The notes beneath the pieces were generated by a model. The model saw only the letters and a program-made list of their open reading frames with translations. It had not been told where the DNA came from and ran no database searches. Both the position numbers and the translations under genes were made by a program. From an uncultured cyanobacterium (GTDB taxonomy: Bacteria > Cyanobacteriota > Cyanobacteriia > Cyanobacteriales > CAWCAG01), in assembly GCA_963793425.1 (NCBI GenBank), contig CAWCAG010000007.1:1-64000 (forward strand): 64,000 nucleotides of DNA, written 5' to 3'. This document shows, one piece after another, positions 38,370 through 45,603 of the stretch. Each line of letters opens with the position of its first letter. The stretch's first letter is position 1.

Positions 38370-39077
38370 ATGACAAGGTCTAACTGGCTTAGCCAAGCGA
38401 ATAATAATCAAGTTAAACAATCTCTTTATTATCAAAATAAAGCTTCCTTAATTCAGAGAAAAAAGAAATCTCATAGTGGAAGTAAACTAATCTTTTTAAC
38501 CTTCTTGGGATTTTTGATTCTTTGCTTCCATATTGCTAGCAACAACAAAGCTTTTTTATTAAAGCAAGCTGGTTATATCTCTCCTTTAGCTATGACAGGA
38601 GGAAACCCTTATATCCGTGCCTTGATGCGGACAATTTCTGTCAGTGAAGCTAAAGATTCTAGCCCCTACACTCTTCTGTATGGTGGTGAACATATTACAG
38701 ATTTAAGCCGTCATCCTGACCAATGTATTACTATTGTCTCAGGCCCTAACGAAGGTAACTGTAGTACTGCCGCAGGAAGATACCAAATTTTAACCACAAC
38801 CTGGCAAGAAAAAGTTAGTAAATATGGACAAGGAAATACTCAAATTTATGGTTTTCAACCCTTTTCTCAAGACCAAGTAGTTTATGCTTGGTTGAGTGAT
38901 CAACAAGCCTGGGGAGAAAATATTTCTGTATTACTTCAAGAAGGAAAAGTTGAAGAAGTTTTACAAATTCTCTCTGGGACTTGGACGAGTTTAGGCTATG
39001 GCATAGAAAATAATCAGCTTACCCCTTTGTTACCGGAAATATACGAACAGGTTTTAGCAGAAGAATTAGCTAAATAG
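38370..39077 (+). CDS. Membrane-anchored lambda-type lysozyme/muramidase
   Basis: TM segment, then ALMRTISVSE, YTLLYGG, STAAGRYQIL, SQD, WTSL. Confidence 0.85.
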   Translation: MTRSNWLSQANNNQVKQSLYYQNKASLIQRKKKSHSGSKLIFLTFLGFLILCFHIASNNKAFLLKQAGYISPLAMTGGNPYIRALMRTISVSEAKDSSPYTLLYGGEHITDLSRHPDQCITIVSGPNEGNCSTAAGRYQILTTTWQEKVSKYGQGNTQIYGFQPFSQDQVVYAWLSDQQAWGENISVLLQEGKVEEVLQILSGTWTSLGYGIENNQLTPLLPEIYEQVLAEELAK

Positions 39078-39108
39078 CTTGAGGAATAAGCTTTGGTCTG
39101 AATTCAGA

Positions 39109-39258
39109 TTACCCAGAGGAAAGCTTACCAATCTCTGCTACCCAGCGTCTGCGCTCAGAATGTTCCAGCATTAAGATATCATCTAAAGACCAGTGAAAGT
39201 GTAAGGCAATAAAGGCTACCTCTTGGTACAACTCATCCAAGGGGTAGCCAAAAATTCC
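39109..39258 (-). CDS. DUF6760-like CIS ORF, probably the -1 frameshift extension of the upstream gene (absent from ORF track)
   Basis: GIFGYPLDELYQEVAFIALHFHWSLDDILMLEHSERRRWVAEIGKLSSG*; overlaps the upstream gene in the -1 frame. Confidence 0.8.
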   Translation of the reverse strand, partial: GIFGYPLDELYQEVAFIALHFHWSLDDILMLEHSERRRWVAEIGKLSSG

Positions 39259-39563
39259 CCCGACACACCCAATACCTCCTCTATTAAGTTGAGGCGTTGA
39301 TAAAAGTCTTGTAAGTAAGCAAAGTCTACTAAAAAGAGCTTTTGTAAGGTTTCTGGGGTAACAGTACTAAGCTGACCTAAAGAAGTGATTACCTGTGATA
39401 AAGCCACAAAAACCCGATCTTCTTGGTTATTAGTTTTATGGTATTTTTGGACAAAAATTTCATCTTTTCCTGTCGCAGGACGCATTTTTCCGTGGCGATG
39501 GACAACTCCTTGCTCATCTACAAAACCTTTGGGTAGAGTAAAGGAAAATTCAGTATAGGACAT
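39216..39563 (-). CDS. CIS tail-assembly-chaperone-like protein 2
   Basis: TEFSFTLPKGFVDEQGVVHRHGKMRPATGKDEI...LFLVDFAYLQDFY; paralog of the next gene. Confidence 0.8.
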   Translation of the reverse strand: MSYTEFSFTLPKGFVDEQGVVHRHGKMRPATGKDEIFVQKYHKTNNQEDRVFVALSQVITSLGQLSTVTPETLQKLFLVDFAYLQDFYQRLNLIEEVLGVSGEFLATPWMSCTKR

Positions 39564-39644
39564 ATCATTTCATTTATCATTAACCATTATTGGCGCTAGC
39601 CTTGCCGTAGGCTACATTAATCATTTTCCTAATTAGATGAATCT

Positions 39645-39983
39645 TTATTCCGTATTTTCTTGCGCTTTTACTTCTTTGGGTTGCTCGTTTTCTAACTCCA
39701 AACCATTGATTTGACGGTAGAATTTTTGCAAATAGTTGAGATCACAAGCAAAAAAGCCTTCAATTATAACTGGGCTGATATCATCCAAAGCTCCCAAGCG
39801 AGTTATAACCCTGGCGAGAATTAATACTGTAGCGTAGGCAGGATTTGATTTAACGCGAGGATCGCGCATGGGGGTGATTTCATCCATCGCCCGTGAAAGA
39901 CGCATTACCCCTTTGCGGTGGAGATTTCCTTCTGTATCGATGTAACCTTTTGGTAAAGTAAAATCAAACTCAGTTTGCAGCAT
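39645..39983 (-). CDS. CIS tail-assembly-chaperone-like protein 1
   Basis: TEFDFTLPKGYIDTEGNLHRKGVMRL..DEITPMRDPRVKSNPAY. Confidence 0.85.
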   Translation of the reverse strand: MLQTEFDFTLPKGYIDTEGNLHRKGVMRLSRAMDEITPMRDPRVKSNPAYATVLILARVITRLGALDDISPVIIEGFFACDLNYLQKFYRQINGLELENEQPKEVKAQENTE

Positions 39984-39985
39984 TT

Positions 39986-40114
39986 ATGTCAAATCCGGTT
40001 GGGTAACATAGGTTATTAGTTAGGGTAGGGAGTAGGGAGTAGGGAGTAGGCAGCAGGATTCCGTGAGCTTTTTTCTCAGATTTCATACTAGTTGTCAATA
40101 ACCGGATTTGATAT
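39986..40114. mobile_element. 129-bp MITE-like element with 15-bp terminal inverted repeats
   Basis: atgtcaaatccggtt ... aaccggatttgatat (14/15 complementary), enclosing (TAGGGAG)n. Confidence 0.6.
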
Positions 40115-40199: not shown

Positions 40200-40685
40200 C
40201 TACTTCACCCGAATAAAATGATCCACAGCTAATTCTACTTCTTCAACCTCAAACTCATTGTTACCGGCTTTAACGTCTCCTATTTTGTAACCTACAGGCC
40301 AAGCACCTTGAAAACGGAATCTCGCCCTTTCAATTGCACCTTGGTCATAAATTGTCAAGTCCCCATCTTTCCTTTGCTTACTCCACTCTCCTTCTTCTAC
40401 GGCTTGAAACCACTTCCACATAGTTGTCGAAACCGTTAAACCTCGCTTCAGAGTAATATTCTCGCTTTTGCTGTTACCAGGAAGTTTAGTACGGACAACC
40501 TTACCGTTTTTAGCTCCACCCTTGCCCCATTTTTGGGGAGTAACCTCGCAGATTTCAATAACCTCTTGGCTACGCTTAAACCCTTGACACTCCATAAAAT
40601 AGGCATCAATAGGATTTTTCGACCCATCTAATTTTAATTCTAGGTAAAAGCGGGCGCTACTAAGGATTTCAAATTGTTCTGACAT
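40200..40685 (-). CDS. CIS tail tube protein (gp19-like) 3
   Basis: FMECQGF, KLPG, NITLKRGLT, WKWF, RFRFQGAWPV, VEEVELA. Confidence 0.92.
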   Translation of the reverse strand: MSEQFEILSSARFYLELKLDGSKNPIDAYFMECQGFKRSQEVIEICEVTPQKWGKGGAKNGKVVRTKLPGNSKSENITLKRGLTVSTTMWKWFQAVEEGEWSKQRKDGDLTIYDQGAIERARFRFQGAWPVGYKIGDVKAGNNEFEVEEVELAVDHFIRVK

Positions 40686-40772: not shown

Positions 40773-41246
40773 TTACTTCACCCGGTGCAGATTTTCGTAA
40801 ACAATCTCTACAGTTTCTGTACCTAATTCCGTGGCACCTGCTTCTAACTTAGATGACTTGTAACTTGAAGGCATCGCTCCGGTAAAATTCCAACGAGCCG
40901 CTTCTTCTCCAGCTTGGTTATAAAGAATAATTGAGCCTGTTTTCCTTTCTCCTTTACTGCTTGTACCACCACCAGCAATAGGTTCGGAGTGGGAGTCCTC
41001 ATACCATTGCATCAATCTATTATCTTCAACAGTATCCACATACTCTATAGTTATTTTGCCGTTCTCTACCCCAGTAACAGTAGCCTGCATTTGGCTTTTG
41101 CCTCCCTTGGTAACACCAAAAGCTTTGCTATCACCAGCAGTTTGTAATTTAACTTCTATACCACTAACCTTTTTGACGATTAGATCATCTAAGCCATCTA
41201 GCTGAGCATAAAACTTAGAACAAGCAAGAATTTCACCAGCAGCCAT
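40773..41246 (-). CDS. CIS tail tube protein (gp19-like) 2
   Basis: RKTGSIILYNQAGEEAARWNFTGAMPSSY..ETVEIVYE. Confidence 0.88.
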   Translation of the reverse strand: MAAGEILACSKFYAQLDGLDDLIVKKVSGIEVKLQTAGDSKAFGVTKGGKSQMQATVTGVENGKITIEYVDTVEDNRLMQWYEDSHSEPIAGGGTSSKGERKTGSIILYNQAGEEAARWNFTGAMPSSYKSSKLEAGATELGTETVEIVYENLHRVK

Positions 41247-41295: not shown

Positions 41296-41769
41296 CTATT
41301 TCACACGATTAACTTGTTCGCAGAGTACAGTAAAAGTTTCCTTACAAAGGTCTTTACTATCTGCGGCGAAGTCATTGACTTTATAGGTTTTAATCCAGAT
41401 ATTGACAAGATTCCAGCGCAAAACTTCGTTATCTTCACTGTCATAACCAACGATGGAACCATTTTTACGGTTTTCACGCCACTTACCGTCGCCACCTTCG
41501 CTCTTGGGCATGGTCGTCTTTAACCAGCTATACCAGTCCAAGTCACCTTCACAGAGGTAAGTTTCTATGGTGACATCAGGGTTTTCTTCAAATCCTGCTG
41601 AGGTGGTTTGCCACATGGTCTTACCATTTTTCGTGGAAGCTAAAGGTTTTTCATGACCTGCCGTTTGTCCAGTAAAAGTTACCTCTTGGACACTAGCAAC
41701 TAGCTTATCTGTCAGACCATCTACTTCCCAATAAAATCGACTAGTTGGGGTTGGTTTTAATTCTGTCAT
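41296..41769 (-). CDS. CIS tail tube protein (gp19-like) 1
   Basis: RKNGSIVGYDSEDNEVLRWNLVNIWIKTY..ETFTVLCE. Confidence 0.88.
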   Translation of the reverse strand: MTELKPTPTSRFYWEVDGLTDKLVASVQEVTFTGQTAGHEKPLASTKNGKTMWQTTSAGFEENPDVTIETYLCEGDLDWYSWLKTTMPKSEGGDGKWRENRKNGSIVGYDSEDNEVLRWNLVNIWIKTYKVNDFAADSKDLCKETFTVLCEQVNRVK

Positions 41770-41887: not shown

Positions 41888-43603
41888 TTACTGGTTGGGG
41901 GCCCACTGGCTAACCCGGAAAATGACAAATTCCGCAGGACGTACAGGGCAAACACCAACTTCTACATAAAGACGACCCATCATCATGGTTTCTGGGGTGT
42001 TGAGAGTGCCGTCACACTTGACATAAAAAGATTCGCTGGGGGAAGCACCAAATAACGCTCCTTCCCGCCACAAACGCTCTAGGAATGTACCAACGGTACG
42101 CTTCACCCGCTCCCAAAGATCCATATCATTAGGTTCAAAAACAACCCATTGAGTACCAATTTCAATGGATTTTTCAATGTAGCTAATCAAACGACGCACA
42201 CTAATGTAGCGCCACTGAATATTATCTGGCTCTACCAGAGTACGAGCGCCCCAAACTTTGTAACCTCGGTTGTAATTAGCAAAGTTACGAATACAGTTAA
42301 TTCCCATGGGGTTGAGGAGTTCCTGTTCCCGCATATTGGTTTCGTAAGATAAACCAATTACGCCTCTGGGGGTGTCATTAGCTGGAGCTTTAAAAATACC
42401 GCGGTTTTGGTCAGTGCGACACCAGATTCCCATCATATGACCGCAAGGAGGAATACTAATAGGTCTTCCTGCGTTGCGAGGGTTAGGAACTTTAATCCAA
42501 GGGTAGTAAAGAGCGCCGAACATAGAACGGCGGTTGAATGCTTTTAACCATTCAGCTACGTGTTGAGGTCTTTGCTCTTCCGGTTTGACGGCTTGGTTCT
42601 CATTTTTACCCATTTTGACAGGAGGGGGATCTAAAACAACCATGCGGTAAGGAGGTCCAGGGAAGGAGTTCTCGCAGAGACTAACCATCATCTCCATGAC
42701 CCCATGTACCTGATCCAAGTCCAGCAATTCGTCTTGGTAGGCACGCATCAAGTCAGGACAAGCAATCATAGCTACTTCGTCCACTTCAAACAAACCCTGC
42801 ATCCCTTGGCGTTCATCCCGGCTACCTGTAACATCCCTAGTTAAGCGTTCAGGAGGTGCAATGTAAGGTGGTGGGGCAACTTCATAGGTTCCGTTTCCAG
42901 GTCTGCGGGAGATAGCAGATTGTCCGGTGATGGAAATATCAGCAACGCTGACATATTCAGAAGCTTCCATAACCGCAACAGCATAATCTGCTACAGCAGT
43001 CTCTACTTCTGGGTTCATGGTGAGGTTATCGTAGCGTTCTAATTCCTCATTACCGCTTCTAATCACTACGTTAAAGAATTCCCCAGTATTGATCGGGGAT
43101 TCTGCGTCTTCTGGGGCATTTTCGGGTAGGGGTTTGGGTGTACTTTCTTCAACATAAACCCGGATGCGTCCATCAGCAGAAGGTAAGGCAGGTAAATTGT
43201 CTTCTCCTTCTGGCATTTTCAGGTTAAATGCTAAACAAGGTTTGCCCCCAGGAGTAAGCATTTTAGTAGCGGTTTCTTCTGGTGCTGGTGCTGGTGTGCC
43301 TGGTAATTTTGTACCAATACTAGTTACCCAACAACGCCCTCCCCCATTCAAAAACCAACCTTGAACAGCAAAAGGAAGATAAGCATCGAAATCTGTAAAA
43401 CCATCAGAACCTGGTTTTGCAAAATACTCCCTAAACTGATCGAAGTTAGTCACCATCATTGGCTTAAAAAGTTCTGCGTCGCCCCGGACATCTTCGGTAA
43501 AACCGATAAATCCTGCTACGCTCATACTCAACCCTTCAATCGGGCGACTGCCCCGGTCTACTTCTTCAACGTAGACCCCAGGAGCAAAATAATCCAATGC
43601 CAT
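41888..43603 (-). CDS. CIS contractile tail sheath protein
   Basis: APGVYVEEVD, WFLNGGGRCWV, ALYYPW, KAPAN, VWGARTL, WRYISVRR, VFEPND, PVRPAEFVIFR. Confidence 0.96.
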   Translation of the reverse strand: MALDYFAPGVYVEEVDRGSRPIEGLSMSVAGFIGFTEDVRGDAELFKPMMVTNFDQFREYFAKPGSDGFTDFDAYLPFAVQGWFLNGGGRCWVTSIGTKLPGTPAPAPEETATKMLTPGGKPCLAFNLKMPEGEDNLPALPSADGRIRVYVEESTPKPLPENAPEDAESPINTGEFFNVVIRSGNEELERYDNLTMNPEVETAVADYAVAVMEASEYVSVADISITGQSAISRRPGNGTYEVAPPPYIAPPERLTRDVTGSRDERQGMQGLFEVDEVAMIACPDLMRAYQDELLDLDQVHGVMEMMVSLCENSFPGPPYRMVVLDPPPVKMGKNENQAVKPEEQRPQHVAEWLKAFNRRSMFGALYYPWIKVPNPRNAGRPISIPPCGHMMGIWCRTDQNRGIFKAPANDTPRGVIGLSYETNMREQELLNPMGINCIRNFANYNRGYKVWGARTLVEPDNIQWRYISVRRLISYIEKSIEIGTQWVVFEPNDMDLWERVKRTVGTFLERLWREGALFGASPSESFYVKCDGTLNTPETMMMGRLYVEVGVCPVRPAEFVIFRVSQWAPNQ

Positions 43604-43701: not shown

Positions 43702-44271
43702 TCAAGAATGTTTACCCAACTTAATCAATTTCTTTTGGGAAAAAGGAGATTTACTTACCAGTTTTGAGGTAGGGTTAGGCTGATAACTTAGGGGAACTGT
43801 AACTGTTACATAGAGAGCAGGACGCAAGGGAACTCCTAAAGCACTCCAAAAAGTAGCAGTGTCTTTTATTTCTTGGGCAGAAACTTTTAAGGGCAAGGAG
43901 CCACGACCCTGTAATCCAGGAGCTAGAAGTTCTTCTGGCAGAGAGCGATAATTCCCTAAGAGGCTTAGGGCTTCGCTAAGGAGATGTTGTTCACCTAGAG
44001 TAGTGCGATCCCAAGCTGTGATCAGGAAAGATAAATCAAACCAGATAAAAGAGCAATCTTGATCGGCATTTGACTCCTTTGCTTGCCCCGCATAATTTAC
44101 CTTAGTATTTTCTCTGATGTCATAGCAGTAAAGGTTTAACCTAGGGCTAAAATACTGTTCTAGGGCTGCTGGACGCTCAAAATCAATTTGTTCTGTCGTA
44201 ATTGAGGGGCTACCCTCAGCTAATATTTCTGCCAGAGTTTGAGTAACAGTATTAATCATAAGTAAAGCCAT
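43702..44271 (-). CDS. Pvc16/DUF4255 CIS cap (sheath terminator) protein
   Basis: LNLYCYDIREN, LSFLITAW, EQHLL, FWSALGVPLRPALYVTVTVP; start 44271 or 44259. Confidence 0.88.
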   Translation of the reverse strand: MALLMINTVTQTLAEILAEGSPSITTEQIDFERPAALEQYFSPRLNLYCYDIRENTKVNYAGQAKESNADQDCSFIWFDLSFLITAWDRTTLGEQHLLSEALSLLGNYRSLPEELLAPGLQGRGSLPLKVSAQEIKDTATFWSALGVPLRPALYVTVTVPLSYQPNPTSKLVSKSPFSQKKLIKLGKHS

Positions 44272-44448
44272 CTGATAAATTAGGCTATACGTAGCATTCA
44301 GTCTAAACAAGGGATTTGGTCATAACCATTAGACTTTGGTCTAAAGCTGAGCCTGGGGGAGTAGGGGCAAGTATTAATTTTTTCTAACTCTTGGGAGATG
44401 TTATTCCTATATTGAGTTAAATTAAAGAACAAAAAGCGATAAAGCATA

Positions 44449-45603
44449 ATGCAATTATCAGCTCTTCCTTTGCCAGAAAAAAGCCCATTGCTAGATAGTA
44501 ATGTTGTTGCAACCTTCCCTGAAAGCTTGAATAGTTTCTGCCAAGGGCAACTAGAACTAATGGTCAACCAACTGCCTTCCCAGGCGGCTTGGATCATTGG
44601 GCGTTCTCAAAGTGCAACTCAAAAACATTATTTAGCTTATTGGTGCAAAGAAACAGCCAGCTTAAACGAACAAAATCTTATTTATTTAGAATCAGAGGCT
44701 TGGTTAAAACAACTTGAATTTCTTTGGCAAGATCAGTTGAGAATTAGTCCTAGCTTGGAAATATGTGACCTTGTTTATCTATTCCCTTTGCTGGATGAAC
44801 AAAACTCTTCTGCTTCTGATCAACCTCAGTTAGATGAATACCTATTAATCTGGGCTGAACAACCTCTATCATTAGATCAACAAGAGAAAATCCAGCAACA
44901 GGCAGCATTCATTGCTGATTATTTGTCTCTATCTCGCCAGTGCCATAGACAACAAGAACAACTCAAACTCTATCAGCAAATCTTGCAACAAGGAGAACAT
45001 CAGTTAAGAAATCCCCTTGCTATGATTGGTTTATATGCTGAGAACCTTTATTTAAGATTGCCAGAGGGGGCGTTGCGTCAGCAAGCTAAGGTAGTGAGGG
45101 AAACAGTCAAAGACCTTAGCGCCAACCTCAAAAATCTTTTGCATTGTTCTCAACAAAACCAACTTCAATTATCTCATGCAAATTTTCAGGTTATTCTAGC
45201 TGAGACTATTCAGATTTTGGAACCTCAATTAGAAGCCAAAGGAATTACCCTTAACATTCCTCAAAACGCTTTAACTTTGACCGTAGATAGTTGGAAAATC
45301 AAACAAGTTTTTGCCAACATCCTCAGCAATGCCGTAGATTTTAGCCCAGTAGGGGGAATGATAACCGTGAACTGGCAGCTATTTGGCAAAGAGTTATTAG
45401 TAGAAATTGTTGATCAAGGGCCAGGACTTACTCCAGAAGTCCTCAAACACGTATTCACACCTTTTTATTCTCAAAAAGAAGGAGGAACAGGTTTAGGATT
45501 AGCCATTGCCAAAAAAAATATTCTCGCTCATCAAGGTAGCATCTGGGTAGAAAACTTACCCAATGGTGGGGCGCAATTTTCTTTTACCCTGCCCCGTTTG
45601 TAA
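44449..45603 (+). CDS. Cytoplasmic sensor histidine kinase
   Basis: HQLRNPL, NILSNA, DQGPG, FTPFY, GTGLGLAI; no TM. Confidence 0.92.
   Translation: MQLSALPLPEKSPLLDSNVVATFPESLNSFCQGQLELMVNQLPSQAAWIIGRSQSATQKHYLAYWCKETASLNEQNLIYLESEAWLKQLEFLWQDQLRISPSLEICDLVYLFPLLDEQNSSASDQPQLDEYLLIWAEQPLSLDQQEKIQQQAAFIADYLSLSRQCHRQQEQLKLYQQILQQGEHQLRNPLAMIGLYAENLYLRLPEGALRQQAKVVRETVKDLSANLKNLLHCSQQNQLQLSHANFQVILAETIQILEPQLEAKGITLNIPQNALTLTVDSWKIKQVFANILSNAVDFSPVGGMITVNWQLFGKELLVEIVDQGPGLTPEVLKHVFTPFYSQKEGGTGLGLAIAKKNILAHQGSIWVENLPNGGAQFSFTLPRL

Follow-up and report, generated by a model that had tools for sequence, protein, structure and literature searches.

Does the last gene of a contractile injection system (CIS) operon in a cyanobacterium end where its reading frame ends, or is part of its product extended in another frame? 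The question is raised by positions 39109..39563, read on the minus strand, of a 64,000-nucleotide stretch from an uncultured cyanobacterium (assembly GCA_963793425.1, contig CAWCAG010000007.1, positions 1 to 64,000; this whole stretch is called the window below). Here, an open reading frame (ORF) resembling tail assembly chaperones overlaps a second, conserved frame, and a preliminary description had proposed a programmed -1 frameshift like that of phage G/GT. Judging from the comparison of related loci, we consider it highly probable that a programmed -1 ribosomal frameshift of the P2 E/E+E' type has been retained in injection-system loci.

The overlapping frames and their conservation

The elements of the overlap, all on the minus strand, are the following.

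39216..39563, minus strand: zero-frame ORF of 115 aa starting at ATG 39563; tail-assembly-chaperone-like, the putative gpE/gpG analogue and short product
39281-39275, minus strand: GAGGAGG, an internal Shine-Dalgarno (SD)-like heptamer and possible stimulator, 13 nt (39274-39262) before the slip site
39261-39255, minus strand: predicted slippery heptamer G GGG GAA, in the zero-frame register xxG GGG GAA
39249..39214, minus strand: predicted stem-loop beginning 5 nt past the heptamer, with 7 bp, a 1x1 mismatch, 5 bp and a 10-nt loop
39109..39261, minus strand: -1 frame extension carrying the DUF6760 domain, 50 codons plus stop; by profile comparison a homologue of the P2 E' extension

The heptamer is read as TCG GGG GAA by the ORF starting at ATG 39563. 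From 39261, the -1 frame reads GGIFGYPLDELYQEVAFIALHFHWSL... for 50 residues to a stop at 39111-39109, and a shifted product would join 102 zero-frame codons to 49 further ones, giving 151 aa. The placement of GAGGAGG and of the heptamer, the -1 frame running to 39109 and product sizes of 115 and ~151 aa had all been given in the preliminary description and were recovered from the sequence. It had also stated that no ATG or GTG precedes the conserved motif of the -1 frame, which is right, but a TTG at 39240 lies just inside the motif, 3' of its conserved Tyr-Pro (Y-P), and is the earliest ATG/GTG/TTG of this frame in the window. The G5 run itself appears sound, as contigs of four sequencing runs contain no inserted or missing base over 39050-39650, but the runs belong to a single study and three of them lack independence, being the possible source of this DNA. 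The sole difference over that interval is an A replacing C (plus strand) at 39232 in one run (X4), within the hairpin loop.

The -1 frame matched PF20546 (DUF6760) with an E value of 1.4e-13 and 51.2 bits, above the 27-bit gathering cut-off. DUF6760 occurs once in the window's genome, which is one of 36 genomes found to carry it in a sample of 401 from the same phylum. A scan of GTDB with one genome per species gave 599 related stretches, of which the best 80 were examined; together with 30 loci from the 36 matching genomes of the phylum sample, these made up a set of 110 loci. According to the record titles, 44 of the 80 GTDB-scan loci are cyanobacterial and 36 are not, the latter being labelled Chloroflexota, Acidobacteriota, Proteobacteria, Myxococcota, Nitrospira, Actinomycetota and Armatimonadota, with two contigs from archaeal metagenome-assembled genomes (MAGs) and three unclassified records. 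The two archaeal-binned contigs (L059 and L061; one from a Halobacteria MAG, one from a Methanothrix MAG) show the same heptamer and hairpin, and L059 also the CIS context; binning error is possible.

The DUF6760 frame lay at -1 relative to the homologous upstream ORF in 30/30 phylum loci and 80/80 GTDB-scan loci, and in frame with it in 0/110. A profile model of the upstream ORF matched the zero frame across the slip site in every locus (110/110), which is a check of sameness and no independent test since 49 of these same ORFs went into the model. The pattern NNG GGG GAR was found in register in all 30 phylum loci, and a run of at least five G in the same register in all 110. The conservation of overlap and slip site expected by the preliminary description is found throughout, with GGGGGAA itself accounting for 38 loci next to GGGGGAG (56), GGGGGGA (9), GGGGGGG (6) and GGGGGTA (1), in the last of which the G run reaches further upstream. 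The run is five G long in 91 loci, six in 9, seven in 6 and eight in 4. Nine combinations of the two bases ahead of it occur (GC, CT, TC, CC, GT, AT, GG, TT and GA), which specify differing residues, and the third position of the codon before the run is invariably G in the 110 loci. A fixed G run preceded by varying bases points to a constraint on the RNA, that is on nucleotides, and not on the protein. Because the same arrangement recurs in 110/110 related loci, it exceeds, at the level of sequence, what chance would give.

A search of IMG/VR with the extension returned 14 loci, nine of which (L115-L123) have the same G-run arrangement. Distant relatives of the extension in L124 and in L125/L126 stand in the -1 frame of an upstream ORF, with no run of G; on visual inspection, A AAT TTT is seen in the overlap of L124, and L125/L126 have a stretch of A just ahead of the stop, which suggests other slip sites within the same architecture. 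Among cultured phages, tblastn with the extension gave no match at E up to 0.01.

Signals around the heptamer and the nature of the proposed slip

The preliminary description had missed the hairpin downstream of the heptamer. In the window (39249..39214) it folds at -19.5 kcal/mol with a z score of -5.06, and 0/200 dinucleotide shuffles fold as well. The same 44 nt fold to -12 kcal/mol or lower in 49 of 51 representatives, which share less than 80% identity over the slip-site region, with a mean of -18.5 kcal/mol. In a gapless alignment of these (A2), 13 pairs were formed in 88.2% of cells, compared with 33-58% when the 3' partner was slid by 1-3 columns, and two-sided changes were seen at five pairs in 29 cells, a value reached by 0/500 shuffles, the structure having been derived from the same sequences that tested it. 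The most informative pair lies between the opening base of the codon that precedes Tyr (NGC throughout, for Gly, Ser, Cys or Arg) and the third, synonymous position of the Ala codon of Glu-Val-Ala (E-V-A); over the representatives it is GC in 29, AU in 7, CG in 2, GU in 3 and unpaired in 10. At another pair, C-G is replaced by U-A together with a change from Val to Ile (L021 and L076). By this covariation, the hairpin downstream of the heptamer is conserved, with compensatory changes.

Three Pseudonocardiaceae MAG contigs (L090, L093 and L104) have Tyr-Ala in place of Tyr-Pro. They form a hairpin in a shifted register from other bases (GUACGCG/CGCGUAC; -24.8 kcal/mol in L090), so that the structure is retained despite the differing arm sequence.

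Upstream of the heptamer, the internal SD that the preliminary description had named as a stimulator is present in the window, which has the longest SD-like match, all seven bases, and an SD-like 4-mer is common in the family without being universal: it is found at -23..-10 in 33/51 representatives, with peaks at -15 and -20. Such a 4-mer was found in 68% of 106 non-identical regions and in 15% of other windows in the same ORFs, an enrichment confounded by the conserved Val-Glu. The element is likely a helper in the window and not a defining part of the family.

Taken as a mechanism, the locus would be the sheath-tube-chaperone module of a CIS, its last gene being the counterpart of P2 gpE/gpE+E' and lambda gpG/gpGT. 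Most ribosomes would read the 115-codon frame and stop, and a fraction would slip back by one base on G GGG GAA. The tRNA-Gly would then shift its pairing from one GGG to another, either alone or along with the A-site tRNA-Glu; in the latter case, tRNA-Glu would re-pair to GGA through a G:U pair. Shifted ribosomes would translate 49 more codons in the -1 frame, giving a 151-aa protein with a C-terminal DUF6760 or P2 E'-like domain. The 12-bp hairpin that begins 5 nt past the heptamer is a probable stimulator of the slip, and in the window GAGGAGG, 13 nt before it, probably helps as well. In the accessible text of PMC10885494, GGGGGAA, an accepted slip motif of actinobacteriophage chaperone genes, is the only "fivetwo" motif among ~1000 annotated chaperone frameshifts of SEA-PHAGES, and tRNA-Glu can re-pair with GGA there if G:U pairs are allowed. 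With the present loci, the idea of G:U re-pairing on GGGGGAA becomes directly testable.

The main mechanistic rival is slippage of RNA polymerase on the G run, by which some transcripts would gain an extra G and encode a one-frame fusion; it is disfavoured, and we hold it to be quite improbable. The site is a homopolymer, its length varies between five and eight G, as would be expected if the run alone mattered, and one added base gives the same -1 reading. Five G are, however, short for known bacterial cases of transcriptional slippage, which involve runs of ~8-9 A or T. Positions 6 and 7 of the heptamer are A followed by A or G in 94/110 loci, a restriction needless for a polymerase slip, and a hairpin 5 nt downstream with an SD-like element ~11-16 nt upstream are the classic stimulators of ribosomal slippage. 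The same heptamer is, moreover, treated as a ribosomal site in phage chaperone genes in the accessible text of PMC10885494.

One joined product or a separate small protein

A different explanation, which we regard as very improbable, is that DUF6760 is a separate small protein, started at TTG 39240 or another non-canonical codon or by termination-reinitiation after the upstream ORF. Gene callers nearly always present it so: among 594 cluster representatives in the DUF6760 family at E up to 0.001, the best 150 include 142 called as proteins of 42-115 aa and 8 as proteins of 121-323 aa. The window has its TTG, and 11/30 phylum loci have an ATG, GTG or TTG upstream of Y-P in the -1 frame. The zero-frame stop follows the heptamer after 0 or 1 codon in 92/110 loci (after 5 codons in 9 and 8 codons in one; 8 others, including the window, have it after 12 codons), a geometry that could serve reinitiation. 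Against this, 11/30 phylum loci contain no ATG/GTG/TTG in the -1 frame from the upstream stop to 14 codons beyond Y-P, and 8 further loci have candidate starts solely after Tyr-Pro; homologues with independent starts, which the preliminary description had set against a frameshift, could exist in some loci and are lacking in others. Were the window's TTG used, the G-G-x-x-x-Y-P upstream of it would be untranslated yet conserved. A start of its own would also leave unexplained the invariant G run with its variable preceding codon as well as the single-ORF fusions described below, and the homologous P2 E' is made by frameshifting only, according to the P2 annotation. In one locus (L026), a -1-frame stop codon stands immediately before the heptamer; in combination with the zero-frame stops found right after the heptamer elsewhere, this confines the frame change to seven bases.

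The fusions were found with a profile run against longer proteins; a query with a single sequence had returned no longer relatives. The profile search gave 21 proteins of at least 105 aa, 17 of which were examined. Of these, three (P0017, P0018 and P0019) are plain fusions in a single ORF and lack a G run, another four (P0007, P0008, P0012 and P0020) are joined across a Gly-Gly junction, and several other long relatives are high-GC read-throughs of the -1 frame. P0018, a protein of 153 aa with the NCBI name "phage tail assembly protein", shares 57% identity with the zero-frame product in residues 1-109 and 72% with the -1 product in residues 97-149, and its layout corresponds to that of the predicted 151-aa product almost residue for residue. 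In a close relative, both frames are therefore one polypeptide. The suggestion that DUF6760-like "genes" in CIS loci are frameshift extensions, already made in the preliminary description, is borne out by the PF20546 match, the 11/30 loci without a start, the stop in L026 and these fusions.

The third explanation, a single ORF broken by a G lost or gained through a sequencing or assembly indel or through decay of the gene, has next to no probability: homopolymer runs are error-prone and the upstream frame is shortened in one locus (L009), but the break is in the same register in 110/110 loci from many projects and phyla, the contigs of the four runs (one study, three possibly the source) contain no indel, and both frames are clearly conserved at the protein level.

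The family matches of the two frames differ. PF20546 was matched by 22/22 aligned extensions. PF06528 (Phage_P2_GpE) was matched by the window's -1 frame at E 0.0026 and 17.7 bits, under the cut-off of 23, and touched at E up to 0.05 by 9/22 DUF6760 sequences. In hhalign, a profile of the 22 extensions matched P2 E' with a probability of 93.7% (E 1.9e-7) over 41 columns that include a common FHW motif. Given this match and the PF06528 touches, the DUF6760 extension is, by sequence comparison, a homologue of P2 E', and the likeness to phage G/GT seen in the preliminary description is upheld. For the 115-aa ORF, the PHROG family phrog_508, "tail assembly chaperone", was matched at E 1.2e-4 in the window and at 4.8e-7 in the locus L067. 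An NCBIfam scan gave a family for neither frame, and an Rfam scan of 38900-40100 at E up to 1 gave no family. The structure predicted for the 115-aa ORF from its alignment (A3) has a pLDDT of 76.9 and a pTM of 0.36; fold searches with this model had 0 matches at E up to 0.001 in BFVD and, with Foldseek, 0 in PDB at the same threshold. The weak rows included the HK97 chaperone 2ob9 (E 5.4) and a mycobacteriophage chaperone (E 1.3), and the best Z in VIA-align wide was 4.0, from single long helices only. In the C-terminal third of A3, most relatives have a CPxC segment before the slip site, with weak matches to zinc-ribbon families; the segment is missing in the window's ORF and a few others (L018, L019, L022, L026, L030 and L051).

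Several observations weigh against a retained phage-type frameshift. The 115-aa ORF reaches PF10109 (Phage_TAC_7; gpE and Mu gp41) at E 1.4e-4 and 22.3 bits, under the 25-bit gathering cut-off, as do only 4/49 of its relatives at E up to 0.01, and an hhalign comparison of its family with a single P2 gpE sequence found no likeness (probability 0.07%). Its likeness to phrog_508 is weak and its scores stay short of membership in PF10109, so the zero-frame ORF is tied to known chaperone families weakly, and much less securely than the extension is tied to E'. The site G GGG GAR departs from the canonical X XXY YYZ heptamer, and 18/51 representatives contain no SD-like 4-mer in the 30 nt upstream. 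Constraints on protein and RNA are entangled because the hairpin arms encode the conserved Y-P and E-V-A. Given all 70 columns, RNAalifold prefers another helix, in which the G run pairs with the CCCC of the Tyr-Pro codons, and predicts the hairpin only once the G run is excluded. This alternative helix (window 39240-39261; A2 columns 8-12 with 25-29) has GC in 28-49 of the 51 representatives per pair and no compensatory change, and the two structures are mutually exclusive because it overlaps the hairpin's 5' arm; it would be impossible with a ribosome on the heptamer and may compete in free mRNA. The compared loci are phylogenetically related. Finally, Pfam and PHROG scans of the proteins encoded downstream in other loci recognised no tape-measure gene, and none follows the chaperone in the window because the operon ends there.

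The injection-system locus and its counterparts

The genes around the overlap are the following.

44298..44597, minus strand: ORF of 99 aa overlapping the start of the cap gene; no Pfam or PHROG match
43702..44310, minus strand: cap/terminator gene (Pvc16_N, Cis16-like), a CIS hallmark; PF14065, E 8.8e-26
41888..43603, minus strand: sheath gene, 571 aa; PF17482, E 1.6e-17, and PF04984, E 3e-11
40685..40200, 41246..40773 and 41769..41296, minus strand: three gp19-type tube genes; PF06841, E 7.5e-30, 3.1e-21 and 3.9e-14, respectively
39645..39983, minus strand: upstream tandem paralogue of the chaperone-like ORF, 112 aa; phrog_508, E 0.0024; without G run and without extension
38370..39077, plus strand: convergent gene of 235 aa with a lysozyme/endolysin-like region; phrog_90 endolysin, E 4.4e-16; no Pfam match at E up to 0.01

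The order in the minus-strand operon is cap, sheath, three tubes, 112-aa ORF and 115-aa ORF, and the operon ends after the last of these because the next gene (38370..39077) is on the other strand. A second chaperone-like ORF was found 300-1500 nt upstream in 54/110 loci, all cyanobacterial by record title or membership in the phylum sample, and this paralogue may supply the "short form" from a separate gene. The chaperone gene comes directly after a tube gene in the window and in 7/8 loci scanned; in L087, sheath and tube genes lie downstream of the chaperone gene. Complete loci begin with an AAA ATPase, a Pvc16_N cap, sheath, tube and the chaperone gene, followed by eCIS_core or family-less proteins, a CIS_tube-LysM initiator, a VgrG-like spike, PAAR and gp25. 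This context fits a CIS rather than a phage. In the window's own genome, injection-system genes are scattered over contigs 5, 7 and 9: contig 5 has the CIS_tube initiator (330920-331342, L112), contig 9 has gp25 (201317-201571, L113), and the window's contig 7 carries only the cap, sheath, tubes and chaperone of the system.

Frameshifted chaperones are well known in phages. The two products of lambda and P2 are made in a fixed ratio, act as assembly chaperones and are absent from the finished particle. In the work on lambda gpG/gpGT by Xu, Hendrix, Duda and Davidson and on P2 E/E+E' by Christie and colleagues, both products are reportedly required, the common part being said to bind the tape-measure protein and the extension to bring in the tube protein. 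By analogy, we infer that the two products of the window would have the same joint chaperone roles for a tape-measure-like protein and the tube. The accessible text of Casu et al. (PMC10066040) describes Streptomyces CIS clusters with no typical tape measure and with "additional proteins of unknown function", and the accessible texts of PMC11126660 and PMC13277306 describe tape-measure-related CIS effectors in Streptomyces; as a speculation, such effector-type proteins are candidate clients of the chaperone. More tentatively, and with somewhat less than even confidence, the -1 frameshift could be a phage inheritance that a large clade of cellular CISs (cyanobacteria, records labelled as ~seven other bacterial phyla and possibly archaea) has retained as a core assembly factor, so far overlooked, with DUF6760/E' as the handle that couples a tape-measure-like protein or effector to the growing tube. 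If this were true, it would be among the most widely distributed cellular -1 recoding events, and the shift rate set by heptamer, hairpin and SD-like element would determine the stoichiometry of loading or the control of length.

A full-text literature search found no mention of DUF6760. In the accessible text of the CIS literature, no frameshift or tail assembly chaperone was found in CIS loci, with the limit that supplementary gene tables, which lay outside the search, could name one. "Frameshift" and "chaperone" are absent or unrelated in the accessible texts of PMC8894136, PMC8894135, PMC12546770, PMC10066040, PMC10598620, PMC11126660 and PMC13277306, as is "chaperone" in that of PMC12210884. 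No earlier description appears to exist of this conserved feature of cellular CIS loci, of what DUF6760 represents or of the hairpin. With a retained -1 frameshift, the DUF6760 family, which Pfam lists without a function, would gain a definite identity as the frameshift extension of a tail-assembly-chaperone-like gene, and would add an assembly factor missing from the parts lists in the accessible CIS literature. Automatic annotation of these loci would be systematically wrong at the slip site, because a free-standing small ORF is called in place of the joined product. The heptamer and hairpin, ~50 nt in all, would make up a compact and conserved bacterial -1 cassette on a non-canonical, G-rich site.

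Among CIS components, the spike plug Cis6/Afp6/Pvc6/Alg6 invites comparison: in the accessible texts of PMC8894135, PMC8894136 and PMC12546770, it is small, largely helical, encoded after the tube genes and essential for particle assembly, and owes its name to homology with Afp6, which by its number falls between Afp5 and Afp7. The plug is a free protein within the particle, whereas the DUF6760 segment here has no start of its own, and neither the DUF6760 sequence nor its profile matched solved chains, all CIS entries included, at E up to 10.

As a signal, the arrangement resembles that of E. coli dnaX, in which a slippery heptamer is combined with an upstream SD-like element and a downstream stem-loop. 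All three parts are seen in the window: an SD-like element 13 nt ahead of the heptamer, the heptamer itself, and a stable hairpin that begins 5 nt past it. It differs from dnaX in its G-rich, non-canonical heptamer, in an SD-like element that is not universal in the family, and in the outcome, as the shifted product is shorter in dnaX and would be longer here.

The expression logic would be the same as in lambda gpG/gpGT and mycobacteriophage L5 gp24/gp25. The preliminary description had named GGGGGAA as the L5 site, and in L5 gene 24 this heptamer, G GGG GAA, indeed stands 7 codons ahead of the stop, in an identical register; gene 24 is annotated as a tail assembly chaperone and gene 25 as the joined product. 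The chaperones of these siphoviruses belong, however, to other sequence families and are followed by a tape-measure gene.

The closest counterpart is found in phage P2 (Peduovirus; AF063097), whose tail operon comprises, in order, FI (sheath), FII (tube), E and E+E' (annotated "-1 frameshift"), T ("tail length determinator"), U and D. P2 gpE matches PF10109 at E 1.5e-12, and P2 E', read from the slip site T TTT TTG, matches PF06528 at E 2.1e-22. The P2 system differs from that of the window in its slip site, T TTT TTG instead of G GGG GAR, in an N-terminal part without detectable likeness and in the tape-measure gene T that follows where the operon ends here, and the window holds a cellular CIS locus with a Pvc16_N cap and no head genes in view, not a phage. 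Common to the two are the chaperone gene directly after the sheath and tube genes (FI-FII-E/E' in P2), a short and a -1-extended product, predicted in the window, that share their N terminus, and a homologous extension, 57 aa from the slip site in P2 and 50 aa here.

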